Source: Clostridia bacterium
GTDB lineage: Bacteria; Bacillota; Clostridia; UBA1212; DUPL01
Assembly: GCA_050951325.1 (NCBI GenBank)
Contig: JBMNIW010000009.1
Location: 19,675-83,674, forward strand
DNA: 64,000 bases
Reading direction: 5' to 3'
The position numbers and the translations under genes were made by a program. Shown here in pieces: positions 14,370 through 48,337 of the stretch; within the stretch, counting starts at the first letter, position 1, and every line of letters begins with the position of its first letter. The notes under the pieces are model-generated. The model saw nothing but the letters and a program-made list of their open reading frames with translations. It searched no databases and was not told the origin of the DNA.

Positions 14370-15123
14370 AGTACACCTCATTTGCCCACATTACAGGTCC
14401 ATCCTTGCAAACCCTCTTGTTTTGCAGAACCTTGTCCTTCTTTACTTCACATACACATACAAGACATGCGCCAATACCGCAGCCCATTCTCTCTTCCAAA
14501 GAAACCTGACAAGGAATTTCGTGTTTTTTACATATCTCATACACCTTTTTCATCATCTTCTCAGGACCGCAGGTATATACAATATCGAACCTGTGTTCCT
14601 CAAGATGCTTTTCAAGGGCAGTGGTTACAAAACCTCTTACACCATAACTTCCATCGTCACAAGCAATGACAAGATTGTCACAGAGATTCGCAAATTCATT
14701 TTCAAGCACCACCTTGTCCTTGCACAAAAAGCCCAATACCGCATCTTTTCTTAAGCTTTCACTTTTATTCAAAAGATACAGAAGTGGAAAAACTCCAATT
14801 CCTCCACCTACAACACAAATTCTGTCATATCCAATATCAAAGCCGTTTCCAAGAGGTCCCAAAACATCTATATTGTCTCCACGTTCAACCTTTGAAAGTG
14901 CCTTTGTACCTTTGCCCCTTGCCTCAAATGCAATTTTAAGAATACCATCTTTGAAGTCACATACGCTAAAGGGTCTTCTGAGATAACCATCGTCACATTT
15001 GACATGGAAAAACTGTCCCGGCTTTATTGCCTCCCTTATGTTGGATGCTTCCAGTTCCAAAAGCCATATGGTATCTGTTAGTCTTTTCAGTTCTTCAACT
15101 CTGCACAAATAATTTGTTTTCAT
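14362..15123 (-). CDS. pyrK: Dihydroorotate dehydrogenase B, electron-transfer subunit
   Basis: It has an FAD/NAD-binding ferredoxin-reductase fold (RRPFSV, GGGIGVFPL) and a C-terminal 2Fe-2S cysteine cluster (CGIGACLVCVCE). It overlaps pyrD by 8 nt. Confidence 0.93.
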   Translation of the reverse strand: MKTNYLCRVEELKRLTDTIWLLELEASNIREAIKPGQFFHVKCDDGYLRRPFSVCDFKDGILKIAFEARGKGTKALSKVERGDNIDVLGPLGNGFDIGYDRICVVGGGIGVFPLLYLLNKSESLRKDAVLGFLCKDKVVLENEFANLCDNLVIACDDGSYGVRGFVTTALEKHLEEHRFDIVYTCGPEKMMKKVYEICKKHEIPCQVSLEERMGCGIGACLVCVCEVKKDKVLQNKRVCKDGPVMWANEVYYD

Positions 15124-16037: not shown

Positions 16038-16041
16038 TTCA

Positions 16042-17267: not shown

Positions 17268-17278
17268 GTCACACCTCT

Positions 17279-18181
17279 TTATCTAGTAAGGATATACAAA
17301 ATTGCCATTCTAACGGCAACTCCGCTAGTTACCTGCTCCTCGATTACCGATGAATCTCCGTCAATCAGCATGGAAGTCATTTCAACTCCCCTGTTGACAG
17401 GACCAGGATGCATTATCAAGCAGTCCTTTGCTGCATATGACAAAGTTTCCTCATTCACACTAAAGAATTTGCTGTATTCACGAATCGTAGGAAAAAGACC
17501 GCTTTTCTGTCTCTCCAATTGAATTCTAAGACCCATAATCACATCTGCATCCTTGACCGCATGCTTGATATTTGGTTCGACCCTTGCGCCCATATCCTCA
17601 ATAGCCACAGGCATCATTGTGGCAGGTCCGTTCACTACCACTTCAGCACCCATCTTTGTCAATCCCCAGATGTTGCTCCTTGCAACTCTTGAATGCAAAA
17701 CGTCACCTGTAACAACCACCTTCAAACCGTGCAATGTCCCTTTGTGCCTGAGCATTGTGTACATGTCAAGCAATGCCTGGGTGGGATGTTCATTCATTCC
17801 ATCTCCGGCATTCACTATGCTGCATTTTAAATGTTTTGCCAACAAGTGGGGAGCTCCTGCCATCGGATGCCTGATAATTATTACGTCCGTTCCCATTCGT
17901 TGAATGGTCCTGCCTGTATCAAGGAGAGTTTCTCCTTTTGCAACACTGCTTGCCGATGCTGCAATGTTTGCAGATGCGCTGGATAGATATTTCGATGCCA
18001 ATTCAAAAGAAAGCCTGGTTCTTGTACTGTTTTCATAGAAAAGAGTAACTATGGATTTTCCATTCAAATGAGGTGCCTTCTTAATGTTCGAATCAAGAAT
18101 TACCTGCATGCCTCTTGCCGTTTCCAAAATGTTTTCAATCTCTTCTTTGGATGTATCTTTCAAACCTAACAAATGCTTCAT
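17279..18181 (-). CDS. pyrB: Aspartate carbamoyltransferase catalytic subunit
   Basis: Contains STRTRLSFE, HPTQALLD and HPGPVNRGVE. Confidence 0.96.
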   Translation of the reverse strand: MKHLLGLKDTSKEEIENILETARGMQVILDSNIKKAPHLNGKSIVTLFYENSTRTRLSFELASKYLSSASANIAASASSVAKGETLLDTGRTIQRMGTDVIIIRHPMAGAPHLLAKHLKCSIVNAGDGMNEHPTQALLDMYTMLRHKGTLHGLKVVVTGDVLHSRVARSNIWGLTKMGAEVVVNGPATMMPVAIEDMGARVEPNIKHAVKDADVIMGLRIQLERQKSGLFPTIREYSKFFSVNEETLSYAAKDCLIMHPGPVNRGVEMTSMLIDGDSSVIEEQVTSGVAVRMAILYILTR

Positions 18182-18183
18182 AA

Positions 18184-18717
18184 CTAACCCTCGTTTATCG
18201 TTACTTTGTCAATACTGTCAATTTCCACCACCTGCACCGAGACCAGTTCTGACTTGCTGGTAGGAATGTTCTTTCCAACATAATCAGGTCTGAAAGGAAG
18301 TTCCCTGTGACCTCTGTCTATCAAGACCGCAAGCTGTACCATCTGAGGTCTTCCCAAATCAAACAGGCACTCAATTGCCGCCCGTACCGTCCTGCCTGTG
18401 TAGATTACATCATCCACCAGGACGATTTTCTTTCCTTCAATCTGAAACCCAATATCAGTTCCATTGATTACAGGATGTGCAGCCAACAAACTAAGATCAT
18501 CCCTGTAGAATGTAATATCAAGAACGCCAAGCGGCACTTTTACATTCTCAATCTCCTCAATCTTTTGAGCTATTCTTTTTGCCAAAGGAACGCCTCTTCT
18601 CTGTATTCCAATCAGAGCAACATCCTCAACACCCTTGTTCTTCTCAACAATTTCATGGGCAATTCTGGTAAGAGCTCTGTTCATGGCGTCCTTGTCCATT
18701 ATCAATGCCTTTTCCAT
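18184..18717 (-). CDS. pyrR: Bifunctional pyr mRNA-binding attenuation protein / uracil phosphoribosyltransferase
   Basis: 177 aa, with the PRT motif [17 protein letters not shown]. It is the first gene of the pyr cluster, 2 nt upstream of pyrB. Confidence 0.95.
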
Positions 18718-18741
18718 AAGTCATCCTTTCCGCAAATTTGC

Positions 18742-18780
18742 AAAAAAAATTGTTCCGTACCTGGAGAGAGGGCACGAAAC
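18742..18780 (-). terminator. pyr leader attenuator terminator
   Basis: The minus-strand RNA forms a hairpin, GUUUCGUGCC-loop-GGUACGGAAC, with 10 bp including two G-U pairs; those positions are mismatches on the plus strand. It is followed by a U8 run (plus-strand A-run 18742-18749) and lies 25 nt upstream of the pyrR start. Confidence 0.75.
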
Positions 18781-18810
18781 AATCATAATAATCCCATAAT
18801 TATGTCGTTA

Positions 18811-18831
18811 CCTTACCCGTCTCTCTGGACC
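18811..18831 (-). promoter_or_regulatory. PyrR binding loop in the pyr leader RNA
   Basis: The minus-strand sequence GGUCCAGAGAGACGGGUAAGG contains the conserved UCCAGAGAG core of PyrR binding loops. The downstream CCCUCUCUCC segment (18763-18772) can compete for pairing. Confidence 0.7.
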
Positions 18832-18850
18832 AGTTTAAAGGTACACCTAT

Positions 18851-18878
18851 ATTATATCCAATTCCTGATATTAATCAA
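18851..18878 (-). promoter_or_regulatory. Sigma-A-type promoter of the pyr operon
   Basis: On the minus strand: TTGATT (18878-18873), 16 nt spacer, TATAAT (18856-18851). Confidence 0.5.
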
Positions 18879-18957
18879 TATGTTTTTTCAAACACTACAA
18901 CCTTAACTTCTTCATCCAACTTCCATACCCATTGTTGGAAGCAACACTTATCCTTCA

Positions 18958-21057
18958 TTAACATCGCAAGTCGTCAATATAATCTGTAATGAATTCCTTC
19001 CTCGTCAAGACATCGGGCAAATACTTTCTTAGCTTTCCACCCAAGTTATAAACATTTACATGAAAGTCATACTTGTCTGGTTTATTTTTCACAATCTCCC
19101 TTATAACAGCTCTTACATCCTTTGCATAACTGTCTGGTATTGAAATATATATTGGTACAAAGCTTGCATAACAAATCTCATTTCGATACCCATGCATCTT
19201 TAAAGCATGGGAAAAATACATAATTTCTTTTGTACCAAGCTTCGGCACAAACAAACACTTGTCTCCTGTTTGAACCACATCGTCTTTAATACTTATAGCT
19301 GCAAACATATTCCGTGATGAAACCAGTCTGTCCAAGGCCCTTTTGCCGAGATATCCATAAGTTTTATCCGATGATAATACCTCAAACACCTTTTCTACCA
19401 GCTTCGTTGGGACTATCAACCTAATGTATGATTTGTATTTGCTTTCCGCATGCTCATCATAAGGTTTTACATAAATAACATGCGAATTCTTGTCAATTGA
19501 AACAACCTGCCAAGCTCTCCCTGCAAGGGAGAAGGTTTCTTCCTCTTCGTAAGGAACCATAACCTGTCCAATCTCCCTGTTCTCATAAATCACAGAATAC
19601 TCTATAGAAGTTTCAAATACGGAAAAGAAATCATAATTGGATACAATAGCTTCTCCAAGGGGACCTACATGCAGGAATCCCTCTTCCGTTCTTTCCAAAA
19701 GCCCGTCTTCGAGCATTTTTAAAAGCAGTAGTCTGTAATCTTCCTGGGAGATGTTTCTGAAGGGACTCAGTGTCAGAATATATTCTGCAAGTTTTGCTAC
19801 CCTTGTCTCATGTACGGAAGCAACATGGCTAAGCGTCTGATGAAGAAGGATTTCGTATGGATATTTTCCTGGGACTACAGCCTCTATCCACCTTTCGTTT
19901 AAATATAGCTCAATAATTGCTATGCATTTTACAAGCTCCCAATCTATCTTGTCTATAGGCATGTTGCCATAGCCTGGTTTCTCCCTAAAAGTAAAATACA
20001 TGACTCCTACACCGCTTTTTCGACCGCTTCTTCCAAGTCTTTGAACAAAGGAGGATACACTTAGCGGTGCACCTGTTTGAACAATCATCTCCAAATCTCC
20101 CACGTCAATACCAAGTTCCAGAGTCAGAGTAGCTCCAACCACCGTCTTTACCTCTTCCATCTTCATGGCCGTCTCCGCTTCCTCCCTCATGGATTTTGAT
20201 ATGTTGCCATGGTGAACCTTGTATACATCCATTGTCCCCATCTCTTTGGCAATTCTCCTCAGACTAGCAATGTTTTCTTCCACTTCTGCCTTGCTGTTTG
20301 AGAATATTATGCATTGCCTGTTCAATGTCCTTTTGTACAAATCCATAAAGAACTCCTCTTCCTTTTGGAAATCCACAAAAAGCTTAAGCCTTCTTCCCTT
20401 TTCCTCAATCATGGGAACCTGACACGCTCTGTGTGTTCCAGCACATAAAAACTTTTTGGCGTATGTGTAATCTCCCAAAGTGGCTGACAATCCTATGCGT
20501 ATGGGTATTCTGTTTATGCTTCTTTGAATTCTTTCAAGGATGCAAAGGAGCTGAATCCCCCTGCCACTTCCCATGAAGGTATGAACCTCATCAATGATAA
20601 TGTATCTTAAATCAGAAAACAGATACTTTATTTCATGCTGTCTCAATACAAGCATTGCCTCTAGCGACTCGGGTGTTGTCTGCAGTATTCCTTCAGGTTC
20701 TCTTCTCAGTCTTTCTTTGCCACTTGACGAAGCATCTCCGTGCCACTTGGTAACAGGGATATTTGCCTCCTTCAGCAAATCAATCAGTCTTTCAAACTGA
20801 TCATTAATCAGAGCCTTTAACGGACTTATATACAATACCGAAACGGAATCAATTTTTTCCTTGTATATCTTTGAAATAACGGGCAAAAAGGCAGCCTCCG
20901 TCTTCCCGGAGGCCGTGCCCGATGCCAATAGCAGATTGTCTTGTGTGTTGAAAATACATTCACAAGCAGCAATCTGTATGTCTCTCAGTTCCTTCCATTT
21001 GCTTTTGTATATATACTCCTGTATGAAAGGAGCAAGCTTTTTAAAGGCATTATTCAT
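18958..21057 (-). CDS. Lhr-like DEAD/DEAH-box SF2 helicase (helicase component of a Shango-type triad, SngC-like)
   Basis: 699 aa. Motif I is ASGTASGKTEAA, motif II is IIIDEVHTF, motif III is LSATL and motif VI is QRLGRSGR. A roughly 300-aa C-terminal extension has no motif I recognise. Its ATG overlaps the upstream ATPase stop (ATGA). Confidence 0.85.
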   Translation of the reverse strand: MNNAFKKLAPFIQEYIYKSKWKELRDIQIAACECIFNTQDNLLLASGTASGKTEAAFLPVISKIYKEKIDSVSVLYISPLKALINDQFERLIDLLKEANIPVTKWHGDASSSGKERLRREPEGILQTTPESLEAMLVLRQHEIKYLFSDLRYIIIDEVHTFMGSGRGIQLLCILERIQRSINRIPIRIGLSATLGDYTYAKKFLCAGTHRACQVPMIEEKGRRLKLFVDFQKEEEFFMDLYKRTLNRQCIIFSNSKAEVEENIASLRRIAKEMGTMDVYKVHHGNISKSMREEAETAMKMEEVKTVVGATLTLELGIDVGDLEMIVQTGAPLSVSSFVQRLGRSGRKSGVGVMYFTFREKPGYGNMPIDKIDWELVKCIAIIELYLNERWIEAVVPGKYPYEILLHQTLSHVASVHETRVAKLAEYILTLSPFRNISQEDYRLLLLKMLEDGLLERTEEGFLHVGPLGEAIVSNYDFFSVFETSIEYSVIYENREIGQVMVPYEEEETFSLAGRAWQVVSIDKNSHVIYVKPYDEHAESKYKSYIRLIVPTKLVEKVFEVLSSDKTYGYLGKRALDRLVSSRNMFAAISIKDDVVQTGDKCLFVPKLGTKEIMYFSHALKMHGYRNEICYASFVPIYISIPDSYAKDVRAVIREIVKNKPDKYDFHVNVYNLGGKLRKYLPDVLTRKEFITDYIDDLRC

Positions 21058-22361
21058 AAAGTAAACTCCGCAAACTCATCTGAAACGTCATCATCTTCTG
21101 ATATCGCAAACTCAAAGCCGCTAGAACCCAGGACCTCTTGCACCGTCTTGTCCGGGTTTTGATAGAGGATATTCAAAAGTTCAATAAAATCCCTTATTAT
21201 CTCTCTGGGGGTTATAAAGGTTTGTGCGCCCACTCTTCCAAACTCAATCTTGAGGAAAGCCACAATATCCTCATCCGTTACCTTTGATTCATACCCATAT
21301 AGGCCTGAATGGATGGAAACCAATTTTTCAAGAAGCACAAAGGTTTCCTCCTGAGTAAGCGGCGCAAGCTTTATAACCGGTGCCAGCATGTCGCCATTAT
21401 TGTTTGTACTTATCCAGCCTGATTCGAGCCTTGATCTTAGGGCCTCATAACTGTAGACTCCCTTTCTTGGATCTTCCAGAGACTGGGGTGTAAGAGCCAT
21501 GATGATTCCCATGTGACTTGCTTTCCCCTGCAATGTATCATTGTACATGGAAAGAATTTTCTCATAATTGTACTGCCTTGTTATTGCGTGAGGCAGCTTG
21601 TATATGTTAACCAACTCATCAATCAGCATCAACAAACCTTTATAGCCTGCTTTAACAAGAAAGGATGCAAACACCTTTAAGTAGTCATACCAGTCGGAAT
21701 CCTTAATTATCACATTCACACCCAAATCCCTTCTGGCTTCCGTCATGGTTGTATACTCTCCTCTGAACCATCTCAGGACATTACTCTTCATTTCCTCATT
21801 TCCATCCCTGTACGCACGCCAGTAAAGACTCAACACCTTTGCAAAATCAAATCCATGTACCAGTTCCTTCAATTCGCCAACCGTTTCAAATATTCTTAAC
21901 TCAACTTCAGTAGATAGTTTTGCATCAAAAGCGGACAGTTCCTTTTCCCTCATTACTTTCTGCTGTATTGCATATATCCATTTTTCAAGTATCAAGGACA
22001 AGGCTCCGCCATCGGGCTTGGTTTTTGTGGACATGTTCTTCATAAGTTCCCTGTAGGTTGCCAAGCCCTGCTTCTGTGAACCCATAAACCTTCTTTCGGG
22101 AGACAAGTCGGCATCCACTACCACAAACCCTTTATCCATGGCATATGTCCTAATGGTCTGTAAGAGAAAGCTCTTTCCACTTCCGTATCTGCCAACAATA
22201 AATCTAAATGAAGCGCCACCATTCTGCACAACATCAATATCACCAAGCAAGGCATCTATTTCCTTCTCCCTGCCCACCGCAATATATCCAAGACCAACTC
22301 TTGGAACAACTCCACCTTTCAGTGAGTTCATTATTGCGGAAGCAATTCTTTTCGGAACCAT
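21054..22361 (-). CDS. DUF2791/BrxD-like P-loop ATPase (SngB-like)
   Basis: I chose the start MVPKRIASAIMNSLKGG at 22361 because of a GGGAGGT SD 8 nt upstream; the track ORF starts at 22394. Walker A is GRYGSGKSFLLQ and Walker B is LLMLIDELV. The start lies 4 nt after the stop of the TerB gene. Confidence 0.8.
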   Translation of the reverse strand: MVPKRIASAIMNSLKGGVVPRVGLGYIAVGREKEIDALLGDIDVVQNGGASFRFIVGRYGSGKSFLLQTIRTYAMDKGFVVVDADLSPERRFMGSQKQGLATYRELMKNMSTKTKPDGGALSLILEKWIYAIQQKVMREKELSAFDAKLSTEVELRIFETVGELKELVHGFDFAKVLSLYWRAYRDGNEEMKSNVLRWFRGEYTTMTEARRDLGVNVIIKDSDWYDYLKVFASFLVKAGYKGLLMLIDELVNIYKLPHAITRQYNYEKILSMYNDTLQGKASHMGIIMALTPQSLEDPRKGVYSYEALRSRLESGWISTNNNGDMLAPVIKLAPLTQEETFVLLEKLVSIHSGLYGYESKVTDEDIVAFLKIEFGRVGAQTFITPREIIRDFIELLNILYQNPDKTVQEVLGSSGFEFAISEDDDVSDEFAEFTL

Positions 22362-22365
22362 ATAG

Positions 22366-25300
22366 TTAACCTCCCAAAACTTTTTTAATGTCATCTAAAT
22401 AATCTTCAATTATCGTGCAATCCACATCCACTACGGTATCGCCTGTTGTTTCAAGAGCCACCTCATTTATGTCCTCGATAACAACTTCCAACATTACACC
22501 AAGTTTCCTGGCAACAGAATATGCATCCTCTTTGTTGGCTATTGCCTTTAACAAATGCATCTGAATATCATTCAGCATTCTTACAAACGAATTATATGGA
22601 TTCTCTCCTGAAACATCAATTATATCACAAATATCATTTGTTTTCTCTTCCGCTGCTGCAACTTCTTCAACTTCTTCCTCTTCATTAATAACAAGCTTTT
22701 CAGTTAGCTTTTGGGATACCTCTCTAATATCATCCAGCTTGTCAAAATCAATTTCCACCTTTTCAATTTTGGGAGTGGGTATCGCATCATCAACGAATAC
22801 TCCTTTTTCTCCCAAAACTTCTGCAGCAGCTGCCATAACGCAGTCGCCAAGCTTCTCCGCCCCTATGGTCTCAATCAAATACCTTATCTCATCACTTGTT
22901 TTATCCGTAATATCCAGAGGAGACTTGAGAGTTCCTTTGAAGGACAACAGATTTCTCAAGGCAATTTCTGCCAGTTTGACTATGATACCATATAGAACAT
23001 AAGTCGATTCTTTTAAACCACAGTATCCACAACGGCTTATGCATATTTCGTCCTTCCATTCATATGCCAAATAATCATTTATAACTGCCGTCTTCTTTCC
23101 TTTTCTTAATCTGACGTATTGCAAATCATTAAAAATCCCGTCTTTACGTTCAAGCTTTTGTCTTTCGCCCAATATATATGCAGGCAAAGAAAGGTCGTAT
23201 TTAGAAAAGAGTTCGTCCAGTTTTTCAAGCACCTTTGGCATGCAGAGATCTATAAGATAACCATCACTTCCTTTTCCAAAGGCACTTTCCCTTGCCCTGT
23301 ATGGACTTTTTTCAAGTATGTACTTGCTGGCACAATCATAGTCGCCTTCAAAAATCTTGTACAGCCCGTAGATGGTATAATATCTCTTTGGAAACTTTTT
23401 CACATAAAATGAATAGGTTTTTTCCAAATCATAGGCAATGTATGCATCCATGATGACACTCTCGATCAAGTCATCGATGTTATCCGAAACCTGGCTGTAT
23501 CCATGCCAGAATTTTATCAGCTTGTCCATCAATTCCTCTTCATTCTCAACTCCTATCAAATTGACAAGCTCGGACAAATACAAAAGAACCATGTTTTTGT
23601 TTGCAGGCTTGAATATTCCCCGCCTTACATCTGATCTCCAATTCAGGTAGTAACGGTTTGCAAAATCATAATCATGAGAGACTCTCTGTTTCTCATATAC
23701 ATCAACATCTTCAAGAAGGCATGCCTGAGTATAAAAATCAATAGGATTATAGTAGTCATACCTATAAGTTTGCCTGCTGGAAATCCTTTGTTCTTTAGCT
23801 TCAGAACTTACCAATGAAAGCAGATGCTTGTTTTGTTGAACTACTTCAGGATCATAATATCTCTTTTTTCCACCAAGAACAAAGCTTTCCAATCTTTGCT
23901 TTTCCTTTATCTTCACATCCTTGTAAATCTTTTTAACCTCATTGGTCAAAATATGCACAAATCTCATTGATTCAATGATTTCTGCATGTTTTGAGTATCT
24001 TTCCAGTCCTGAAAAGATAATATCAAAAGGAATATCTGAAAAATCTCCTTTTTTGTACCTTCTTGCTGCAGTGGCGATGATATTTACGACATACTCGCAA
24101 AACTTCTGTTCCCTCTTATCAAAATCACAGCCGTAATAGAACAAGGAACCATTTTCAAAAGTATACTTAATCCCCTTGTTAATATATGTTTCCTCTTTAA
24201 TCCTGCACTCCTTTTTATCAATAAGGTATCCTAGTTGCGAAAAGGACACTTCTTCTTTTATGACATTACCCAGCAATAGACTTCCAAGCGAAAATGCGCA
24301 TTCCCTTTCAAGCAGATCTGACGCCTCCTTAAGAGCAACGGGAAGAACCCTTTTTAGAACACTCTGAACTTCCTTTGAAACACGTATTCTTATCCTTCTG
24401 TTAAAATACTCATATACATTTGTGTAATTGCCATGAGCAATCTCATCCATAATCAAGGTATTGCCAATATACCCTTCAGGAAACCTTTCGCAAACCTCTG
24501 CAAAAGGCATGTCCAATCCTTTAAGGACATAGAACTCAATAATAGTGTCCTCCATTAGTTTATCAATATCAGTGACATTCCTCATACCTTTCCAGAAGTC
24601 TAAAAGTTTTGAAAGAGTATCCAGCTCATCAATACAATTTGCAAGAAGTATTGTTTCGTTCAGATACAGTTTAATATATCCGATATCCGCCTTTTCATAA
24701 ATCCCTTTTCTAATCTTTGTTCTCCATGAGAAATAGCCAAGCAGTTGCTGGTTTGTCATATGGGTATATGTAGGATATACATTTAAAAAATCCACCAATA
24801 CCACATCTTCATTGTACTCAACCTTTTCCATGAATTTAACTTGTTTTAGAAATAACTCCGCACCATAAATCATTCCTTTGGGAGTTCTTGAAAGAGATCT
24901 CATCTTATCGAACTTGTCTTTAATCCGAATCTGCCTGTTGCGTTCAGCAACTTCTTCATGCATAACGATAGCTATTTGCTTATGGATTACCTTAACCAGT
25001 TCTCCTGTATCTATTATGCTGCGCATCTCTTCGTCCTGGTAAAGACTCGTATCATATATTTTCAAGGGTTTTTCACCAAGAATTTCCCTTATTCTTGATT
25101 CCATATGCTTAAGTATGAAAGATATGAGTCTTGCATGTTTCCTGACAGGGAAGAGCTTTTCCGCATACAGGATTTGGTCTTGTACAAAATATCTTTCCGT
25201 TTCTGATATAACGTACTCACTGAATCCATAGTCCTTTTTCACAAATGGATTGTATTTGAAAGGCTCGTAAACATCCACTTTTCTTTCAAACAGCATTTCA

Positions 25301-25428
25301 TTGAACGAAATACCCTTCTGGGAAAAGTATTCACTCACACCTTTCATAACAACTTCAAAAACGCTGTCAATATATCTTCCTTTTTCACTTCTGTAAAAAG
25401 AGCTGCCATAAGATTTGGTGTTGGGCAC
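22366..25428 (-). CDS. TerB-N/TerB-C domain protein, major (C-terminal) part of a frameshifted gene (SngA-like)
   Basis: It contains two TerB-N-like modules (around aa 215-310 and 585-680: FSWRTKIRKG..IKLYLNE..LLDFWKG and YLNWRSDVRRG..LLYLSELVNLIGV..LIKFWHG) and a TerB-C-like tail (DFDKLDDIREVSQKLTE...EVVIEDINEVALETTGDTVVD). The annotated GTG start directly follows an in-frame stop, so this is probably not a real start. Confidence 0.75.
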   Translation of the reverse strand: MPNTKSYGSSFYRSEKGRYIDSVFEVVMKGVSEYFSQKGISFNEMLFERKVDVYEPFKYNPFVKKDYGFSEYVISETERYFVQDQILYAEKLFPVRKHARLISFILKHMESRIREILGEKPLKIYDTSLYQDEEMRSIIDTGELVKVIHKQIAIVMHEEVAERNRQIRIKDKFDKMRSLSRTPKGMIYGAELFLKQVKFMEKVEYNEDVVLVDFLNVYPTYTHMTNQQLLGYFSWRTKIRKGIYEKADIGYIKLYLNETILLANCIDELDTLSKLLDFWKGMRNVTDIDKLMEDTIIEFYVLKGLDMPFAEVCERFPEGYIGNTLIMDEIAHGNYTNVYEYFNRRIRIRVSKEVQSVLKRVLPVALKEASDLLERECAFSLGSLLLGNVIKEEVSFSQLGYLIDKKECRIKEETYINKGIKYTFENGSLFYYGCDFDKREQKFCEYVVNIIATAARRYKKGDFSDIPFDIIFSGLERYSKHAEIIESMRFVHILTNEVKKIYKDVKIKEKQRLESFVLGGKKRYYDPEVVQQNKHLLSLVSSEAKEQRISSRQTYRYDYYNPIDFYTQACLLEDVDVYEKQRVSHDYDFANRYYLNWRSDVRRGIFKPANKNMVLLYLSELVNLIGVENEEELMDKLIKFWHGYSQVSDNIDDLIESVIMDAYIAYDLEKTYSFYVKKFPKRYYTIYGLYKIFEGDYDCASKYILEKSPYRARESAFGKGSDGYLIDLCMPKVLEKLDELFSKYDLSLPAYILGERQKLERKDGIFNDLQYVRLRKGKKTAVINDYLAYEWKDEICISRCGYCGLKESTYVLYGIIVKLAEIALRNLLSFKGTLKSPLDITDKTSDEIRYLIETIGAEKLGDCVMAAAAEVLGEKGVFVDDAIPTPKIEKVEIDFDKLDDIREVSQKLTEKLVINEEEEVEEVAAAEEKTNDICDIIDVSGENPYNSFVRMLNDIQMHLLKAIANKEDAYSVARKLGVMLEVVIEDINEVALETTGDTVVDVDCTIIEDYLDDIKKVLGG

Positions 25429-25996
25429 TCATTTTGTCGAAATACGGCAGAGTATTTTCATAATCACCGGAATATATTCTGTCTTCGTAAGATGCTATTT
25501 GAAACTTTTCATCAAAACTCTTGACTATGTCTTTGAAAGAACCTACGGAATGAAGGATGCAGTAGTCTTTGATATTGTCATAAAACTCAAGATCAGTAAG
25601 CTCGTCGCATTTGTTCCATAAATCAATCAGAAGGGCAAGTCCTTCCTCGCTTGTTACACCCACCAGATTGACAAGCTCGTTTATGTATACAAGAATGTAT
25701 TCTCGTTTTGTTTGCTTGTAATTGTTCTCCAAAAACTGTGTGCGCCAGTACACGTAGTGATAGAGATTGGATTCCGTCATGTCTTCGAAGGCTCTAATGC
25801 TTCCAAGACCATCCGGTCTGCCCTTGTACGAATTATAAAAGCGATAGTCCTTTAAAAAGTCTGCACATTTAAAAAAACGGACAAAAGGCTCCCCATTGTC
25901 CCTGGATAATTCACGTACCTTGCTGATTGCTTCGTGATCCAGTATCTTTTCTGACAACAATGTGAAAGCCTTTTCCGTTAAATTCTTTTCCTTCAT
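25385..25996 (-). CDS. TerB-N domain protein, N-terminal fragment of the same gene
   Basis: 203 aa carrying a third TerB-N module (YHYVYWRTQFLENNY..ILVYINELVNLVGV..LIDLWNK). It overlaps the downstream ORF by 44 nt in another frame. The module similarity continues across the frame change (see finding). Confidence 0.75.
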   Translation of the reverse strand: MKEKNLTEKAFTLLSEKILDHEAISKVRELSRDNGEPFVRFFKCADFLKDYRFYNSYKGRPDGLGSIRAFEDMTESNLYHYVYWRTQFLENNYKQTKREYILVYINELVNLVGVTSEEGLALLIDLWNKCDELTDLEFYDNIKDYCILHSVGSFKDIVKSFDEKFQIASYEDRIYSGDYENTLPYFDKMSAQHQILWQLFLQK

Positions 25997-26811
25997 CTTT
26001 TGGTTACATCATTCTCCTTGAGAAACTCTACAATTGCATTCACAATTGTATCCTGATATTCGTCACTTACAAGCTTCTTCTCTTCCTCTTCATTGGTCAA
26101 ATATCCAAGCTCGAGTATCATACACGGACCTTCTGTCCAGTTGATACTTGTATAATTGTCGCTTCTTCGGACATTTCTATTTGCGGCCCCTGTTGCATTT
26201 ACAAGCTTCTCCATAAGCATGTTTGCAATTGCAAGCTCATAGTTGGCAAGTGCCTTGGTTTCCTCACTGCCGTCACCCTTGTCCCTAATATATATCTCCA
26301 TGCCGTGTACATCCTTGTTGTCCACTCCATTCAAATGAATCCTGAGTGTAAGATGGGAACCGAACTCATTTGACATAAGAGCTCTTTCCTTGTTTGATAT
26401 GTCCACGTCATGAGTCTCTCTTGTCATAAGTACCTCTGCGCCTGCATTCATCAAAGCATCACGCAGCTTAAGACCAATCTTCAAAGTCAACATATACTCA
26501 GGTGTACCTGTAGTTGCACCCTTTGTACCTGCCGCAATCTTTCTCTTTTTTTCACTGCTCCACGGAGCCATTTCTTCAAGTTCATTGTTCGCTTTGCCCT
26601 GATGACCAGGATCAATGCATATCTTGAGACCATGCAAAGGAAGAACTTCTGTTGGAGAAGGAGTTGGTCCCTCCCCTTCTCCCGGTGTTTTATCAATGTT
26701 ATCAGTTAATGTCGGTTCCGTTGTTTCATCTGCTGGTACGTTGCTGTTTGCACATCCTGTAATAAGGAGTGCAATCAATACCAAAATTGCTGTTATCTTA
26801 TGTGTTTTCAA
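25993..26811 (-). CDS. N-acetylmuramoyl-L-alanine amidase lipoprotein (Amidase_3 type)
   Basis: It has a lipobox (LLITGC), a Pro/Thr linker, and catalytic-domain motifs (ICIDPGHQG, LRIHLNG, ILELGYLTNEEE). The start is TTG, with an AAGGAG SD. Its stop overlaps the TerB-N start (ATGA). Confidence 0.88.
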   Translation of the reverse strand: MKTHKITAILVLIALLITGCANSNVPADETTEPTLTDNIDKTPGEGEGPTPSPTEVLPLHGLKICIDPGHQGKANNELEEMAPWSSEKKRKIAAGTKGATTGTPEYMLTLKIGLKLRDALMNAGAEVLMTRETHDVDISNKERALMSNEFGSHLTLRIHLNGVDNKDVHGMEIYIRDKGDGSEETKALANYELAIANMLMEKLVNATGAANRNVRRSDNYTSINWTEGPCMILELGYLTNEEEEKKLVSDEYQDTIVNAIVEFLKENDVTKR

Positions 26812-26827
26812 CTCGTACTACTCCTTC

Positions 26828-29293
26828 TTATACAATGGTATAGCTGCCCGGTTCGTCAAGGTTGATTCTTATACGATTGCCAGCCCTTTCAAACTCAGAT
26901 ACGAGAGCAACCTTGTCATTTATTCTTATCGTAGAATTTTCGTCCTTGTTTATAAGGGGGAAGCACAATGAAGCCCTGGTTGGCACAGTGCAGTTATAAA
27001 CAAAGGTTCCGTTTTCCATTCTCCAACTGCTCTTTACTAGACCGCTGGCAGACTCATACTCCGCTTCAACATAGGTGATGTTCTCCTGACCTTCAGGCAA
27101 CTCATCTTTTGTTCTGGTATCAGGCATTGGTCTTAAAACGACATGTTTGAAACCAGGCTCGTTAAAGTCATTGTTAATACCCGCCATGTACTTGAACATC
27201 CACTCCAACACAGCACCGTATGCATAGTGGTTGAAGGAGTTCATTCCAGCATCTCCGAATCCCTTTTCAATTGTATATGAATTCCATCTCTCCCAAATTG
27301 TTGTTGCTCCCTGATATACGCTGTACAGCCAGGATGGATCTTCCGTCTGCAGAAGCAACGAATACGCTATATTGCTTTTTCCAAACTCACTCAATGTCTG
27401 GTTCAATATACCGGTTCCGATAAAACCTGTACTCAACCTGTATCCGTTGTCCTTTATCTTCTGCTCCAGACAGTCCGCTGCTTCCTGAACATAGGATTCT
27501 GGCAGCATGTATGTCTTTAGAGCCAGGAGATATGCAGTCTGGGATGTTTCCTTAAGCTTTCCATTCTCGTCAAGGAATTTCTCCTGGAAATGCTTCTTGA
27601 TATCCTCATATAGTTTTGCATACTCTTCTTCTTTTTGCGAACCTATTGCCCTTGCCATATCCCTCATGTACATGGTGCTCAAGGCAAACATGCAGCATGA
27701 GACGTATTCCTTGTCGGTAGGCTCATAGCTTAGCCAGTCTCCATATACCGCATTTCCTCCACCAAGGCCAAAGCTTCTCAAGTACTGAATGTATTTGTCC
27801 ATGGCTTCGAAATTGTCCTCTATTATCTTTTTGTCTCCATACATGCGGTAGATTACATATGGAACAATAACACCGGCATCCGCCCATGCAGCATTGCCCT
27901 CTCCCACCACTCTGACACGGGGAGCTACATCCGGGAAAGCTCCATTCTCACTTTGGCAGTCTCTCATATCCTGCATCCACTTGTGGAAAAACTCTCGAAC
28001 GTCCGCATTGTAGCATGCCGCATTGACAAAAATCTGCGTATCGCCTGTCCAGCCAAGTCTTTCATCCCTTTGTGGACAGTCGGTGGGTATGCTTAAATAG
28101 TTTCCTCTCTGTCCCCATATCACATTACTGATTAGCTTGTTTACATCCTCATTAGATGTTCTTATTCTGCCTGTTTCCTTTGTATCAGAACCTACCACGC
28201 AAGCCTTGATATATATGAGGACAATGTCGTCATCCGCTGTAATTTCAATGTACCTGAAACCAAAGAATGCATGGGTTGGATTGTATGTCTCTCCAAACTC
28301 GTCCCCTCTTAAGATATATTGTATCTTGGACTTTGCGCTCCTGTAATTTTCAGTATACAAACTGCCCTTCGGTCCGTCATTGCCTCTTGATTTATCTCCG
28401 CTGTCATTGAGCATTTCAGCAAATCTCACAAGAATGCTTGTGCCTCTTTTGCCTTTTACGGTGAATCTAGGCCATCCAACCAGGTTCTGACCAATGTCTA
28501 TCAAAAGGGTTTGACCCTTCCTGATTTTAACTTCCTGGCCCAGTTCAAACTCATTTACATAAACAACCTCACCATAATCAGTTCCGTTGTCCCTTATTCC
28601 CTCATACAACTTCATGCTGACAGGAAGCATGTTCAAAAATTCCCTCTCCCTTATTGCAGGACCTATATGCTTTGTGACCTCGCCATTAAAGTTTGTATAG
28701 ATTAACGCATGGTTCCAATCAGAGTCATCAAAGCCGGGATATTTAAAAGAATCATTGTCTACTCTGGCATCGTAGAACTCTCCATCCCAGATGTCCGCAC
28801 TTAATATGGCGCCACCTACTTTGCATTTCCAGTCCTCATCCGTACCAATATGGTTTGTGGTGCCGTCTTCATAAGTAAAATCAAGCCTTGCAAGAAATGC
28901 CACACTATCCTTTGGATAAGTATCAATATTGATTCTTCCCTGCCACCAACCAGGAGATACAATGCCTGTTATGCAGTTTACGCCGTCTGTAAGATACTCT
29001 TTAACATCGTATTCATAATACAGAACTCTCTTTCTGTATTCGGTCCATCCAGGCTTTAAAACATCCTTTCCTACCTTTATGCCATTAATAAAGAGCTCAA
29101 ATATGCCCAAAGCAGTTGCTTTAACAACAGCTTCTTTTACCTCTTTCGAAACTTTGAATTCCCTTCTAAATATTGGCAGACCACCACCGTTTTTTAAAGG
29201 CGACTTCCTGTAATCAGCAGTGCTCTGATTCTCCCAAGGATTAACTCCTTTTTCCACTCTACTGTATTCAATACTTATCCATCTAGCATCCAT
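26828..29293 (-). CDS. Alpha-L-rhamnosidase (GH78)
   Basis: 821 aa with the GH78 signature PTDCPQRDERLGWTGD. There is no signal peptide. Confidence 0.9.
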   Translation of the reverse strand: MDARWISIEYSRVEKGVNPWENQSTADYRKSPLKNGGGLPIFRREFKVSKEVKEAVVKATALGIFELFINGIKVGKDVLKPGWTEYRKRVLYYEYDVKEYLTDGVNCITGIVSPGWWQGRINIDTYPKDSVAFLARLDFTYEDGTTNHIGTDEDWKCKVGGAILSADIWDGEFYDARVDNDSFKYPGFDDSDWNHALIYTNFNGEVTKHIGPAIREREFLNMLPVSMKLYEGIRDNGTDYGEVVYVNEFELGQEVKIRKGQTLLIDIGQNLVGWPRFTVKGKRGTSILVRFAEMLNDSGDKSRGNDGPKGSLYTENYRSAKSKIQYILRGDEFGETYNPTHAFFGFRYIEITADDDIVLIYIKACVVGSDTKETGRIRTSNEDVNKLISNVIWGQRGNYLSIPTDCPQRDERLGWTGDTQIFVNAACYNADVREFFHKWMQDMRDCQSENGAFPDVAPRVRVVGEGNAAWADAGVIVPYVIYRMYGDKKIIEDNFEAMDKYIQYLRSFGLGGGNAVYGDWLSYEPTDKEYVSCCMFALSTMYMRDMARAIGSQKEEEYAKLYEDIKKHFQEKFLDENGKLKETSQTAYLLALKTYMLPESYVQEAADCLEQKIKDNGYRLSTGFIGTGILNQTLSEFGKSNIAYSLLLQTEDPSWLYSVYQGATTIWERWNSYTIEKGFGDAGMNSFNHYAYGAVLEWMFKYMAGINNDFNEPGFKHVVLRPMPDTRTKDELPEGQENITYVEAEYESASGLVKSSWRMENGTFVYNCTVPTRASLCFPLINKDENSTIRINDKVALVSEFERAGNRIRINLDEPGSYTIV

Positions 29294-29342
29294 ATTTCGA
29301 TCCCCCTGTATTCAATATCGTGTACTTGTCCCAATGCCCTGT

Positions 29343-29371
29343 ATTATATGTTTACACATTCCTCTTGTCAA
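29343..29371 (-). promoter_or_regulatory. Consensus sigma-A promoter upstream of the rhamnosidase-amidase-TerB-ATPase-helicase gene string
   Basis: On the minus strand: TTGACA (29371-29366), 17 nt spacer, TATAAT (29348-29343). The -35 overlaps the trmFO stop codon. Confidence 0.65.
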
Positions 29372-30657: not shown

Positions 30658-30662
30658 ATGCC

Positions 30663-44980: not shown

Positions 44981-45016
44981 AAAAAGGCTATTGGCATATA
45001 AAGCCATAGCCTTTTT
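44981..45016. terminator. Bidirectional rho-independent terminator
   Basis: AAAAAGGCTATTGGC-loop-GCCATAGCCTTTTT lies between the cupin gene (+) and the dpnB-like gene (-). Confidence 0.7.
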
Positions 45017-45878
45017 CAATTGCCAGTCAAGAGTGATGTCAACAATCCTTTTTCTAGATCATTAATGTTGTACACCGTTTCCATGACATTAAAAGTTTCT
45101 CTCAAATTATCTTTTGCAGAAGTCCATCCAATTCCATCTGTAATCCAGACCAGCTTAAAACCGTCTATCCTTTGAGCTTCCTGATACAGCATTTTGTAGC
45201 TTCTGGCAGTCTCATTAAGCTTGGAACCATGACCAGTATAAAAATTTGTTTCAATACCATAAATCATTTTGTCTGCTCTTACAACAAAATCAAACTTTTT
45301 TTCAGCCCTCTCTTCATCTCCAAACACGGACAAATCAAGACCAAACCTGTTTTTGATTTCTGTCAGCTTCATTTCCTTGAAATAGTTGATGTTCTTAACA
45401 AAACCTGCTGCAATTATGTACTTCTCCACCAAATCCTCCATGGAATCTCCGCCCCTGTTCTTTCTGCTGTGTGAATCAAGGCCCGTTTCCACACCGAAAG
45501 CATAATCCACCAAATTGCTGACTATATGATTCTGGAGCATTTCAAATAGTCCCGTTTCCCGCATGAAATGTTTGTACTGCTCTATGCTGTACATCATCCT
45601 GCTAAAATTGTAAACCAGGACTCCTTGCAAATCATTTATGTAGATCTTGCTTTTTCTAACCGCCATCAAAATGGTATGCATTTCAGTGTCTCAGGATACC
45701 TGGTCACAATATCTTCAAAATCCTGCTCTATGTTCTTTGACCCGACCAGAGCATTAAGTATATTCAACTCTATTTTGTACTGCTCCACATTCCTCACAAC
45801 TTTGTTAAAATCCGTGTAGTACTTGTAGCTTGCAATACTTTTCTTCAATGTTGCAAACCACTCATCAAAGTTCCTCAT
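45016..45878 (-). pseudogene. dpnB: DpnII/MboI-type (GATC) restriction endonuclease, split by a -1 frameshift
   Basis: The ORFs 45666-45878 (MRNFDEWFATL...YYTDF...LNALVGSKNIEQDF...YPETLKCIPF*) and 45016-45681 (..ILMAVRK...LFEMLQNHIVSNLVDYAFGVETGLDSHSRKNRGGDSME...NFYTGHGSKLNETARSYK...WITDGIGW) together are colinear with the pneumococcal DpnII endonuclease as I remember it. The frames join if one base is added at about 45669-45672 (CCAATTTTG versus the observed CCATTTTG). Confidence 0.8.
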
Positions 45879-46671
45879 TTTTCACCTTCTCCAATCTCCT
45901 TTTGGTTATCTCCATATACTCCTCACAATTGTCAATACCAACAAATTTTCGCCCAAGTCTGACAGCTTCCACTCCAGTAGTTCCCGAACCACAGAATGGA
46001 TCAAGAACCAAGTCTCCTTCCTGGGTTGAAGCTAGAACTATTTTTTCCAAAAGATATCTTGGTTTTTGTGTTGGATGTCTACCTTCGGTCTTTTCCGATG
46101 GCTTTGTAAGACTGCCCGTCCATACATCCTTCATTTGCTTCCCATTGTTTAATTCTTTCATCTTTTCGTAGTTGAAATAGTGCTTTGCCTTTTCATCCTT
46201 TTTTGCCCACAGGATGGTTTCAGTAGAATGTGTAAAACACTTGCATGCAAGATTTGGAGGTGGATTTGTTTTCTGCCATGTAATATTATTCAATATCTTG
46301 TACCCTTCCTGCTCCAATGCCATGCCAATGGAATATATGTTGTGTAAAGTGCCAGAAATCCAAATGGTACCATTAGGTTTCAGAACTCTTCTACACATCC
46401 TTATCCATCTGCGGTTGAATTCATGTTTTTCTTCTATAGTTGTAGCATTTTCGTTAAGCTTGTCCCATGAACCTTTATTAACAGACACCATTTTTCCTCC
46501 CTGGCATGTGATACCGTTGTTGCTTAAAAAATATGGTGGATCTGCAAAAATCATATCAAAACATTCTGATTTCATTTTTCTCAGTATTTCAAAAGAATCT
46601 CCCAGTACAAGAATTGAATCGTCTGTTTCATAATAACTTGGTATGTTGTTTTCAAATACACTTTCCCTCAT
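45865..46671 (-). CDS. dpnA: Beta-class N6-adenine/N4-cytosine DNA methyltransferase (DpnA-like)
   Basis: Motif IV (IFADPPYFLSN) precedes motif I (VLDPFCGSGTTGVEA), which is the beta order. Its start lies 1 nt after the upstream methylase stop, and it overlaps dpnB by 14 nt. Confidence 0.85.
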   Translation of the reverse strand: MRESVFENNIPSYYETDDSILVLGDSFEILRKMKSECFDMIFADPPYFLSNNGITCQGGKMVSVNKGSWDKLNENATTIEEKHEFNRRWIRMCRRVLKPNGTIWISGTLHNIYSIGMALEQEGYKILNNITWQKTNPPPNLACKCFTHSTETILWAKKDEKAKHYFNYEKMKELNNGKQMKDVWTGSLTKPSEKTEGRHPTQKPRYLLEKIVLASTQEGDLVLDPFCGSGTTGVEAVRLGRKFVGIDNCEEYMEITKRRLEKVKNEEL

Positions 46672-46672
46672 T

Positions 46673-47515
46673 TTATCTCCCTTGGTAATTGCAAATAATT
46701 ATTTCCTCTCCTACACGATTGTTCGCATCTGAATTTATCATGCGCTTAACACTTACTACATCCATCCTGTACCCCTTATTGCCATATAACTCGTTAATGA
46801 ACTCAGTGTTGTGGTTTGTCAGCATGCAGAAACATCCTCTTTCTGTAAGTTCATCAAAAAGTCTTGCAAGTCTAATATGGCTTTCAACATCAAAACCTTC
46901 TTTTGTATAGGATTCAAAGGAGGTGGGATTAAGAGGGGCGTACGGACTGTCAAGAAACACAAAATCCCCTTCCTTAGCTAAGTGGCAGGCATCTTCAAAA
47001 TCCCCTTCAAGGATTGTTACATTCTTAAGGTATTTCGATACTTCAAGGATTGATTCAGCATCTACAGATCCCCTTCTTGAGTTGTTATACGGTACATTGA
47101 ACAACCCTTGTGCGTTCACTCTGTATAGCCCGTTATAGCAGTGCTTGTTTATAAACACTAACATCGCGGCAAGTTCTACATCATACTCCTGCCTCATTAG
47201 CTTGTCGTTGTATTTTTCGCGTATGTGATAGTAGTATTTTTTTCCATCATCCCACATCTCATCATCAAGCTTGTTAACAACATCTAAAAATTCATCAGGT
47301 GATGTGCCTATCTGTCTGTAGGCATTTATCAATGCCTTATTTATGTCGTTTATAACTGCGTTATCAGGAAGCAAATCAAATAAAACCGCACCACCACCTA
47401 CAAAGGGCTCGTAATATGTATTAAACTTTTCAGGCATTCTCTCTCTTATATGTGTTAGAAGCTGGCGTTTCCCACCAGCCCATTTGACAAAAGGAGCTAT
47501 TTTAGTCTTCTGCAT
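46673..47515 (-). CDS. dpnM: Dam-family GATC N6-adenine DNA methyltransferase (DpnM-like)
   Basis: I chose the start MQKTKIAPFVKWAGGKRQLL at 47515; the track ORF begins at a TTG at 47578. Motif I is YYEPFVGGGAV and motif IV is FLDSPYAP (alpha order). Confidence 0.88.
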   Translation of the reverse strand: MQKTKIAPFVKWAGGKRQLLTHIRERMPEKFNTYYEPFVGGGAVLFDLLPDNAVINDINKALINAYRQIGTSPDEFLDVVNKLDDEMWDDGKKYYYHIREKYNDKLMRQEYDVELAAMLVFINKHCYNGLYRVNAQGLFNVPYNNSRRGSVDAESILEVSKYLKNVTILEGDFEDACHLAKEGDFVFLDSPYAPLNPTSFESYTKEGFDVESHIRLARLFDELTERGCFCMLTNHNTEFINELYGNKGYRMDVVSVKRMINSDANNRVGEEIIICNYQGR

Positions 47516-47593
47516 CAATATTTCCCCATCTCTACAATAACTTATCGTACATCCCCTATTATAACTACAATTCTGCAAAATAACAAACGCGTA

Positions 47594-48337
47594 TTACTTC
47601 ACAAACACAAATATATACTCGTGTGCAATCATTAAGAAATTCTTCTTTACATTCCTCCAATATGCCGTTGATGTGCAATTATGCTGCTCCTTGATAATAA
47701 TTTCCTTCAATGCAAACCCTGCCTGTATAAAACACTCCATTACACGAAAACCCAAAGGAACTATCTTTCCCTGCCTTCTTGTGTCGCCCATCATTACCGT
47801 GCACATTTTTTCCCGTTTCAATACTCTGAAGGATTCCCTTGCCACCACTTTCATTTTTTCAACAAACTCATTAACTTCCAATAGTGATATGTCTTCTGCT
47901 ATTCCATTTGAATATTTGATTATGTTTGCATACGGTGGATGTGTACATACAAAGTCCATTCTGCCATCTTCGATAAATTCAAGATTCATTGCACTGCCAT
48001 TTACAACATGAATTATGGATTTTGTACTGCATGTAAAGTTGAGATTGCTTTTCGTCAGTTGAACAGATTGCGGATTTATATCAACACCTATTGCATTTCG
48101 TCCCAATAATTTTGCTTCGACCAATGTAGTACCGCTGCCAACAAACTGGTCCAGAATCCAATCACCGGGCTTAGTGTACAAAAGTATTAGATTCCTTGGT
48201 ATGTATGGTGACCAGTTCCCCCTGTATCTACCTGAATGAGTCGCCCAACTACCTCGGTCGGGGAAAGACCATACTGTAGTTGTTTCAAGCATGAAATTTT
48301 CAGGACTTAAACGAATAAAGCATACCTCCTTTGTCAT
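47594..48337 (-). CDS. Additional DNA methyltransferase with motif I before motif IV
   Basis: The N-terminal half reads like the C-terminal half of a beta-class MTase (ILDQFVGSGTTLVEAKLLGRNAIGVDINP). It is followed by motif IV (FVCTHPPYANIIKY). It is the first gene of the RM string. Confidence 0.75.
   Translation of the reverse strand: MTKEVCFIRLSPENFMLETTTVWSFPDRGSWATHSGRYRGNWSPYIPRNLILLYTKPGDWILDQFVGSGTTLVEAKLLGRNAIGVDINPQSVQLTKSNLNFTCSTKSIIHVVNGSAMNLEFIEDGRMDFVCTHPPYANIIKYSNGIAEDISLLEVNEFVEKMKVVARESFRVLKREKMCTVMMGDTRRQGKIVPLGFRVMECFIQAGFALKEIIIKEQHNCTSTAYWRNVKKNFLMIAHEYIFVFVK

Follow-up and report, generated by a model that had tools for sequence, protein, structure and literature searches.

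A Shango-type SngABC triad with a three-module SngA among the housekeeping genes of a Clostridia bacterium

This report concerns a Shango-type gene triad in the genome of an anaerobic Clostridia bacterium (NCBI GenBank assembly GCA_050951325.1). The window, which is the whole stretch of 64,000 nucleotides (nt) analyzed on contig JBMNIW010000009.1, carries on its minus strand, at positions 18958-25996, three tightly packed, co-directional genes as judged from their open reading frames (ORFs). These genes, sngA, sngB, and sngC, make up the Shango block, and the parts of the block are as follows (aa, amino acids; HMM, hidden Markov model; P0001, an intact SngA protein).

25996..22366, minus strand: sngA, encoding three TerB_N modules and TerB_C; 1209-1210 aa when intact, two ORFs in the window
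25996..25385, minus strand: 5' ORF of sngA, 203 aa
25428..22366, minus strand: 3' ORF of sngA, 1020 aa
25804..25424, minus strand: TerB_N module 1 of SngA (Pfam, residues 67-165 of the 203-aa ORF; custom HMM, P0001 residues 65-191)
24936..24370, minus strand: TerB_N module 2 of SngA (Pfam, residues 165-320 of the 1020-aa ORF; custom HMM, P0001 residues 401-542)
23655..23278, minus strand: TerB_N module 3 of SngA (custom HMM, P0001 residues 781-906)
22770..22387, minus strand: TerB_C of SngA (Pfam 5.2e-14, residues 887-1014 of the 1020-aa ORF)
22361..21054, minus strand: sngB, 435 aa, predicted BrxD-like ORC/Cdc6-type AAA+ ATPase
21057..18958, minus strand: sngC, 699 aa, predicted Lhr-core/BrxHI-like superfamily 2 (SF2) helicase

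The stop codon of sngA (TAA, 22368..22366) is followed by four nucleotides (CTAT) and then by the ATG of sngB, and the junction of sngB and sngC is an ATGA overlap (21057..21054). A GGAGG lies 9 nt ahead of the sngB ATG at 22361; an alternative in-frame ATG upstream, at 22394, would give a protein of 446 aa. The three genes are adjacent and co-directional in a single operon, which is the Shango layout. An earlier sequence-only reading of this DNA had described the packed triad with its 4-nt gap and ATGA overlap, and all of these are present on the minus strand; the motifs that it had named in the ATPase (GRYGSGKS, LIDE) and in the helicase (GTASGKT, DEVH, SAT, QRLGRSGR) can likewise all be read in the translations.

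Profile searches point to the same class for all three products, with matches far stronger than chance would give. With the PADLOC models, SngA was the sole match for both pieces of sngA (1.3e-12 for the 203-aa piece and 1.5e-56 for the 1020-aa piece), SngB was the top match for the ATPase (1.5e-187, with BrxD second at 2.5e-49), and SngC was the top match for the helicase (6.5e-205, with BrxHI second at 1.3e-124). Pfam returned TerB_N (PF13208, 1.3e-10) on the 203-aa piece, TerB_N in two stretches (5.8e-24) and TerB_C (PF15615, 5.2e-14) on the 1020-aa piece, BrxC_BrxD (PF10923, formerly DUF2791; 7e-165) on SngB, and DEAD (4.4e-31) and Helicase_C (7.1e-17) on SngC, where a weak WH_Lhr match fell just under its cut-off. 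No SngA model was found in NCBIfam; its BREX_BrxD model scored 166 bits on SngB against a 350-bit cut-off, and its Lhr-type models scored 201-211 bits on SngC against cut-offs of 849-850. Because the PADLOC Sng models win and the NCBIfam BrxD and Lhr-type models stay far under their cut-offs, the locus is classified from its sequence as a Shango-type triad, a member of an already-known class of anti-phage system, rather than as a fragment of a BREX (bacteriophage exclusion) system. The Shango-type call of the sequence-only reading is borne out by these top matches and by the expected Pfam families, which are above their cut-offs except for WH_Lhr. Standard defence annotation would detect this homologue. 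Its novelty is limited to a new member with an unusual three-module SngA, and the classification of Shango is unchanged.

A TerB/ATPase/helicase triad was reportedly predicted by Anantharaman, Iyer and Aravind in 2012. Shango homologues with the same three-gene layout showed anti-phage activity in Escherichia coli (bioRxiv 10.1101/2022.05.11.491447; Millman et al. 2022) and gave phage resistance in Pseudomonas aeruginosa PA14 (Johnson et al. 2023). The window locus agrees with these systems in its three protein families, in gene order, and in the tight coupling of the genes. It differs in that the SngA of the window has three TerB_N modules in 1210 aa, whereas the PADLOC model spans 528 positions and the SngA of one Klebsiella plasmid 769 aa, and in that the window locus lies among housekeeping genes and is fixed in its species instead of occupying a variable defence hotspot. 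The SngB of enterobacterial Shango is only ~43% identical to that of the window.

Several other classes were considered for this locus and rejected. Type 2 BREX (Pgl) has, in its BrxD-BrxHI dyad, the same pairing of ATPase and helicase, with the same helicase domain plan and a standalone ORC/Cdc6-like ATPase, but PglX, PglZ, BrxC, and PglW were absent from a Pfam survey of the window ORFs, and the partner of the pair here is a TerB_N/TerB_C protein. A tellurite-resistance (Ter) reading fails because Pfam finds only TerB_N and TerB_C in SngA, without the TerB core domain (PF05099), and because the window has no ter genes. For the Lhr/MrfAB class of repair helicases, the core fold fits, but DUF1998 is missing and the partner is a BrxD-like ATPase. 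As for a prophage or phage origin, 0 SngB homologues were found in 50,697 phage records.

In the intact SngA, the three TerB_N modules are followed by an acidic linker and by TerB_C at residues 1076-1204. The repeated W-R motifs that the sequence-only reading had pointed out in the TerB product correspond to three cores (YWRTQF, FSWRTKIRKG, and LNWRSDVRRG), each with a later L-x-x-[LF]-W, and the much larger, multi-module TerB partner that it had expected is indeed a protein of three TerB_N modules and 1210 aa when intact. The modules are 26-33% identical to one another, and the acidic linker ahead of TerB_C is polymorphic in length (a 3-nt indel at 22666). In the 1020-aa ORF, the PADLOC SngA model covers residues 527-1018; module 3 together with the tail is the counterpart of a canonical single-module SngA. 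Since the modules are colinear in an alignment of all four lineages that carry this locus, the triplication is old. To place this protein among its relatives, a HMMER scan of 1.84 billion cluster representatives was used, which gave 1597 relatives, only 19 of them below 1e-30. Among the best 151 of the 1597, one TerB_N module was counted in 123, two in 24, and three in 3. The two-module SngA, with 24 of 151, is therefore a recurrent variant; the 3 three-module proteins (P0001-P0003) belong to the window clade itself, and on this count the three-module form is specific to that clade. A metagenome scan with the SngA alignment yielded only one further sister-species contig and an unrelated TerB_N system (L023, described at the end). 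The AlphaFold2 (AF2) model of module 3 and TerB_C has a predicted local distance difference test score (pLDDT) of 80 and is mostly helical, and no transmembrane segments were found in SngA, SngB, or SngC. SngA is predicted to be soluble and built largely of helices, its three divergent TerB_N modules being followed by an acidic linker and a TerB_C tail. One two-module SngA-like protein, P0010 (1385 aa), has three HNH_repeat units between its TerB_N modules and TerB_C; we take these to be homing-endonuclease-associated repeats.

SngB, in which Walker A (GRYGSGKS) and Walker B (LIDE) are intact, is assigned to the BrxD family of P-loop ATPases. A 2026 comparative study describes BrxD as a standalone ORC/Cdc6-type AAA+ ATPase, which is tightly linked to BrxHI as a dyad and is proposed to load or activate the helicase (PMC12839542). 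In SngC, helicase motifs I (GTASGKT), II (DEVH), III (SAT), and VI (QRLGRSGR) are intact. Its AF2 model (pLDDT 88, predicted template modelling score 0.87) has as its top Foldseek match Lhr-core 5V9X (E 3e-30, TM 0.71, full length), with MrfA next, and Lhr and MrfA are also the best sequence matches among solved structures. As modelled, SngC is an Lhr-core-like SF2 helicase composed of RecA1, RecA2, winged-helix, beta-barrel, and Lhr-CTD-like domains. The C-terminal region had been left as uncharacterised by the sequence-only reading; that description can now be replaced, as the C-terminal 340 residues are predicted to form the last three of these domains. The predicted four-domain fold superposes over the full SngC on Lhr-core of M. 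smegmatis (5V9X) and on MrfA/YprA of B. subtilis (6ZNP/6ZNQ). In contrast to these relatives, SngC is only ~20% identical to them, has no DUF1998 match, lacks the long C-terminal extension of Lhr (699 aa in total), and, unlike MrfA, has SngB and SngA as partners and no adjoining MrfB-type nuclease. Neither the domain search nor the predicted structure of SngC revealed a nuclease, toxin, or membrane domain. With no nuclease in SngC, any model of Shango must explain immunity without an obvious killing domain.

The three subunits evolve at different rates. Between lineages, SngA is 37-46% identical, SngB 78-83%, and SngC 63-70%; dN/dS is 0.26 for SngA and 0.13-0.14 for SngB and SngC, and all three genes are under purifying selection. 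Within the species, single-nucleotide polymorphisms (SNPs) concentrate in sngA and in the 3' part of sngC, and the 10 kb of upstream flank has 1 SNP. Identity to a sister species (contigs L007 and L021) varies in a mosaic fashion, from 81-85% in some tracts to 99-100% in others next to them, and inter-species recombination tracts lie in sngA and sngB (e.g., window 22014-22614 and 22911-23211). Over the second of these tracts, the window and three same-species contigs (L001, L034, and L037) are all 100% identical to L007, against a background of ~90%. In addition, L034 carries a sister-species tract over the sngA 3' end and the sngB 5' end, where it is 98-100% identical to L007 as against 88% for the other same-species contigs. 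From these comparisons, SngA is the variable subunit (fast-evolving, recombining, and with 1-3 TerB_N modules) and SngB is highly constrained. The difference between them points work on trigger recognition at TerB_N, for which natural 1x, 2x, and 3x variants exist.

In the window itself, sngA is split by one inserted base at ~25409-25412 (frameshift site 25405..25416, minus strand), so that the broken TerB frame implied by the sequence-only reading is real. The site reads CAAATCTTATGGCAGC, i.e., CAAAT[C]TTATGGCAGC against the intact allele CAAATTTATGGCAGC. Two intact alleles are found at the break in this species, AAAATCCTTGGAAGC in 12 contigs and CAAATTTATGGCAGC in L033 and L037, and the second of these is shared by the sister species (L007, L021). 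The window has this second allele plus one extra base, and L037 differs from the window over a 12-kb block by that single gap and 31 substitutions. The insertion occurs in the window only; 14 other same-species and 2 sister-species contigs have an unbroken sngA. Among them, L001, a metagenome contig obtained by searching for exact matches to the helicase, shares 99.4% identity with window 14303-31055 and has sngA as one 1210-aa gene; L002-L004 likewise encode P0001, the intact protein; and a look-up of the neighbouring rhamnosidase gave ten more same-species places (L033-L042, of which L038 is the same contig as L002), all with a 1209- or 1210-aa sngA. A programmed frameshift can be ruled out, since sngA reads as one continuous frame in all other copies, those of the 16 other contigs of both species and of two more distant lineages.

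Indels of this kind are not confined to sngA. The pyrC gene (window 16040-17267) has two 1-nt G insertions relative to L001, at 16220 and 16160, and encodes a dihydroorotase of 350 instead of 407 aa, and a DpnII endonuclease gene is frameshift-split into 45878..45666 (70 aa) and 45681..45016 (221 aa). Together with sngA, these cases suggest that the assembly is prone to indel errors. Because the 64 kb contain four frameshifting indels, and a biosynthetic gene accounts for two of these, we regard an assembly error in sngA as about equally likely as real decay, which would leave the system inactive in this strain. A different Shango gene is affected in L033 (545 kb, JGI 3300053716): there, sngC, at 18239-20339, is predicted as separate ORFs of 317 and 394 aa, an independent case of either disruption or error.

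Upstream of the Shango block are nrdR, a comM remnant, dprA, topA, trmFO, a GH78 rhamnosidase gene, and a gene for an Amidase_3 lipoprotein, and downstream of sngC are a pyr leader and then pyrR, pyrB, pyrC, pyrF, pyrK, and pyrD. The pyr leader, with a PyrR-binding attenuator (RF00515; 18845..18742, minus strand) whose 48 bits fall slightly short of the gathering score of 54, abuts the sngC stop, and no terminator was detected between them. The block is present in 15/15 same-species contigs. The order rhamnosidase-amidase-sngABC is found in four lineages, namely the window species, the sister species (~90% nucleotide identity to the window; L007 is Clostridiaceae bacterium AS15tlH2ME_177), L005, and L006, the SngA of the last two being 46% and 37% identical to the window copy. 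The gene after sngC varies by lineage: pyrR, a dapF-like gene with gdh, or AraC. The closest named relative of the window bacterium is a metagenome-assembled genome from an anaerobic digester. The G+C content of the block (0.36-0.43) is close to that of its flanks (0.40-0.45). No empty site was found; the scan of a genome collection with the rhamnosidase gave one close relative, L007, and L008, with a rhamnosidase 48% identical, was rejected as an empty site because it is too distant. No mobility or defence genes adjoin Shango within ~14 kb, the nearest recombinase and restriction-modification genes being 14-20 kb away.

The sequence-only reading had proposed that the block is an inserted defence islet. 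Since the block is fixed in the species, keeps the same upstream junction in four lineages, lies among housekeeping neighbours with unremarkable G+C, and has no empty site among the genomes scanned, this idea is unsupported; the locus is inherited vertically within the clade and is not a recent insertion. Of the three observations that the same reading had named as jointly refuting its call, two, an invariable presence at this position and a lack of defence-island neighbours, were made here. In the adjacent pyr operon, the pyrB-pyrC stretch is 2-3.7% divergent from L001, as against ~0-1% in its flanks, and looks like a recombined tract.

Shango in Firmicutes is far from the rarity that had been implied. 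There are >8000 SngB homologues at E<=1e-30, many of them from Clostridia at ~64-67% identity (Acetobacterium, Ruminococcus, Oscillospiraceae), and three-gene operons were seen in the three chromosomal contexts examined, so that Shango-like triads are, by sequence comparison, very common in Clostridia. The three chromosomal triads have a single-module SngA, no amidase, and core genes as neighbours: one lies between uvrC and hprK/murB, one between pgi and a gene with a GGDEF domain, and one between ackA and an HMA-domain gene, after which comes a MatE transporter. The single-module triads of Acetobacterium bakii, Ruminococcus sp., and the Clostridium estertheticum plasmid pCF002-344 have the same operon as the window, and their SngB is 61-67% and their SngC ~50% identical to those of the window; they differ from it in an SngA of 493-658 aa with one TerB_N and in the lack of an upstream amidase. 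The family is mobile on a larger scale. SngB homologues are found on 692 plasmids; on pCF002-344 the triad is flanked by a relaxase gene and an IS110 element, and on Klebsiella pINF156.1 it lies beside a Gabija-like pair and IS903. Shango-type triads can therefore be both abundant in Clostridia and vertically stable among core genes, and because such triads sit among core genes and not in defence islands, island-based surveys may misjudge them.

Immediately upstream of the triad are two further features of interest.

26811..25993, minus strand: Amidase_3 lipoprotein gene, directly upstream of sngA
29371..29343, minus strand: sigma-70 consensus, candidate promoter (TTGACA-17-TATAAT, 12/12 positions)

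The amidase gene stop and the sngA start form an ATGA overlap (25996..25993) that the first reading had missed. The gene is directly upstream of sngA in L005, L006, L007, and L021 as well; the ATGA overlap recurs in L005, L007 has a 4-nt overlap by its ORF coordinates, and L006 has a 4-nt gap. The product gave only sub-threshold matches to NCBIfam N-acetylmuramoyl-L-alanine amidase models, and precomputed Pfam Amidase_3 matches are on record for its orthologues. An identity as CwlD, the best of these models, was rejected (74.7 bits against a cut-off of 221.55). We regard the amidase as a conserved neighbour in this clade only, and as no more than a possible member of the system. The perfect sigma-70 consensus lies 50 nt upstream of the rhamnosidase start and, as a pattern match only, is a possible promoter of a rhamnosidase-amidase-sngABC transcript. 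From this consensus to the sngC stop, no minus-strand terminator-like sites were found in the intergenic gaps; intragenic hairpins were flagged at 25650..25635, 25646..25629, 20915..20892, and 20073..20054. The third of these, ~140 nt inside sngC, is strong and terminator-like, with a 9-bp stem, 7 G-C pairs, and a T-rich tail.

Overall, the locus is probably best explained as a chromosomal Shango (SngABC) anti-phage system of Clostridia that works along the following lines, although we hold the mechanism itself more tentatively, at somewhat below an even chance. SngA, being the variable, recombining, and copy-number-variable partner, would be the sensing or specificity subunit, and having three paralogous modules would let it recognise a broader set of phage cues. 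On sensing, an oligomeric SngB, acting as an ORC/Cdc6-like loader or switch, would load or activate SngC on phage DNA, a role modelled on the proposal for the BrxD-BrxHI pair of type 2 BREX (PMC12839542). SngC would be the effector, translocating 3' to 5' and directly disrupting phage replication or recombination intermediates. Immunity would then be direct and not abortive, and the cell would not be killed.

A number of observations weigh against this interpretation. The anti-phage tests of Shango cover gammaproteobacterial homologues only, and the literature searched contains no study of the Shango mechanism. The only suggestion in that literature is "membrane surveillance", by analogy with TerB (bioRxiv 10.1101/2022.05.11.491447); our data, in which none of the three proteins has a transmembrane segment, neither support nor exclude this idea. 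A PDB sequence search gave no solved relative for SngA or SngB, and a Foldseek search of the model of SngA module 3 and TerB_C against the PDB gave 0 matches at E<1; its only similarities there, weak and 50 residues long, are to LuxR/GerE-type helix-turn-helix domains and offer no fold-level clue. Because solved relatives are missing for both proteins, and a structural match also for the SngA model, we infer their roles. In addition, sngA is disrupted in the window itself, and for a defence system it is atypical to be fixed in a species without defence-island or mobile neighbours within ~14 kb.

The division of labour could also be the reverse of that proposed here: SngC, with SngB, would sense aberrant or foreign DNA, and SngA would be the effector of an abortive infection, acting through TerB_N/TerB_C at the membrane or on metal homeostasis. 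A helicase is the sensor in Hachiman (PMC12278908), published work has connected TerB proteins with the membrane, and no other candidate effector domain was found in the operon; however, SngA has no transmembrane segment, recognisable enzymatic domain, or structural match, and it evolves faster than the other two subunits, as a sensor more typically does. We consider this arrangement unlikely. Quite unlikely, in our judgement, is that the triad serves Clostridia as a housekeeping module for DNA repair or replication stress (cf. Lhr, MrfA/MrfB), acting on host lesions and not primarily in phage defence. The constancy of the locus speaks for such a module: fixation in all 15 contigs, the same position in four lineages, the core-gene setting of other Clostridia triads, an SngB 64-67% identical across the sampled Clostridia relatives, and purifying selection on all three genes, to which the repair helicases MrfA and Lhr can be added as the nearest solved relatives of SngC. 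On the other hand, homologues of the same layout made P. aeruginosa and E. coli resistant to phage, the family is found on 692 plasmids and beside IS (insertion sequence) elements and other defence genes, and SngA, a hotspot of SNPs and recombination whose module number ranges from 1 to 3, evolves far faster than the usual repair factor.

Two further proposals involve the upstream genes. The three-module SngA might be a "sensor array", with one phage cue per module and alleles recombining between species, coupled to the secreted amidase; this would be the first link of the TerB-type subunit of Shango to the cell wall, and we think it very improbable. The other proposal, which we hold to be highly improbable, makes the functional unit a five-gene, envelope-linked operon of rhamnosidase, Amidase_3 lipoprotein, and SngABC, in which the secreted amidase, and possibly the rhamnosidase, would be an effector or sensor arm; it would tie the "membrane surveillance" suggested for TerB-type proteins to cell-wall remodelling. 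The close spacing of amidase and sngA in all four lineages, the retention of the rhamnosidase-amidase-SngABC order, alongside a changing downstream neighbour, even where SngA identity is as low as 37%, and the consensus promoter ahead of the rhamnosidase with no later intergenic terminator are all consistent with such an operon. Yet the four lineages are close relatives that share the rhamnosidase (73-93% identical), and common descent therefore explains the arrangement as well as function does. Moreover, the single-module triads examined in Clostridia, on plasmids, and in Klebsiella all lack an adjoining amidase or rhamnosidase, and the whole region is a long co-directional string of tightly spaced, unrelated genes.

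Elsewhere in the window, a large serine recombinase gene (40161-41603, minus strand; Resolvase, Recombinase, and Zn_ribbon_recom domains), ~14 kb upstream of Shango, is the sole mobility-type gene seen. A DpnII-type restriction-modification cassette (45016-48337, minus strand) lies beside a tRNA gene (48489-48559) and includes, in addition to the split endonuclease gene, the following.

48337..47594, minus strand: N6_N4 methylase-like ORF
47578..46673, minus strand: Dam/D12 methylase
46671..45865, minus strand: N6_N4 methylase

Between nrdR and dprA, an ORF of 189 aa (33969-34538, minus strand) has a Mg_chelatase_C domain only and is read as the ComM-like remnant. It has the same length in all same-species loci that cover the region (L002, L003, L033-L040, and L042), and it is therefore a stable truncation and not an assembly error.

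Finally, the TerB_N system returned by the metagenome scan (L023, 275-12116; Ga0310695_10001988) is a different cluster with no helicase among its translations. Its ORFs can be read as a BrxL-like Lon protein of 586 aa, an SMC-like ATPase of 1465 aa, a BrxD-like ATPase of 437 aa, and a protein of 1441 aa that contains several modules resembling TerB_N, and the cluster may represent a distinct BrxD/TerB_N system.

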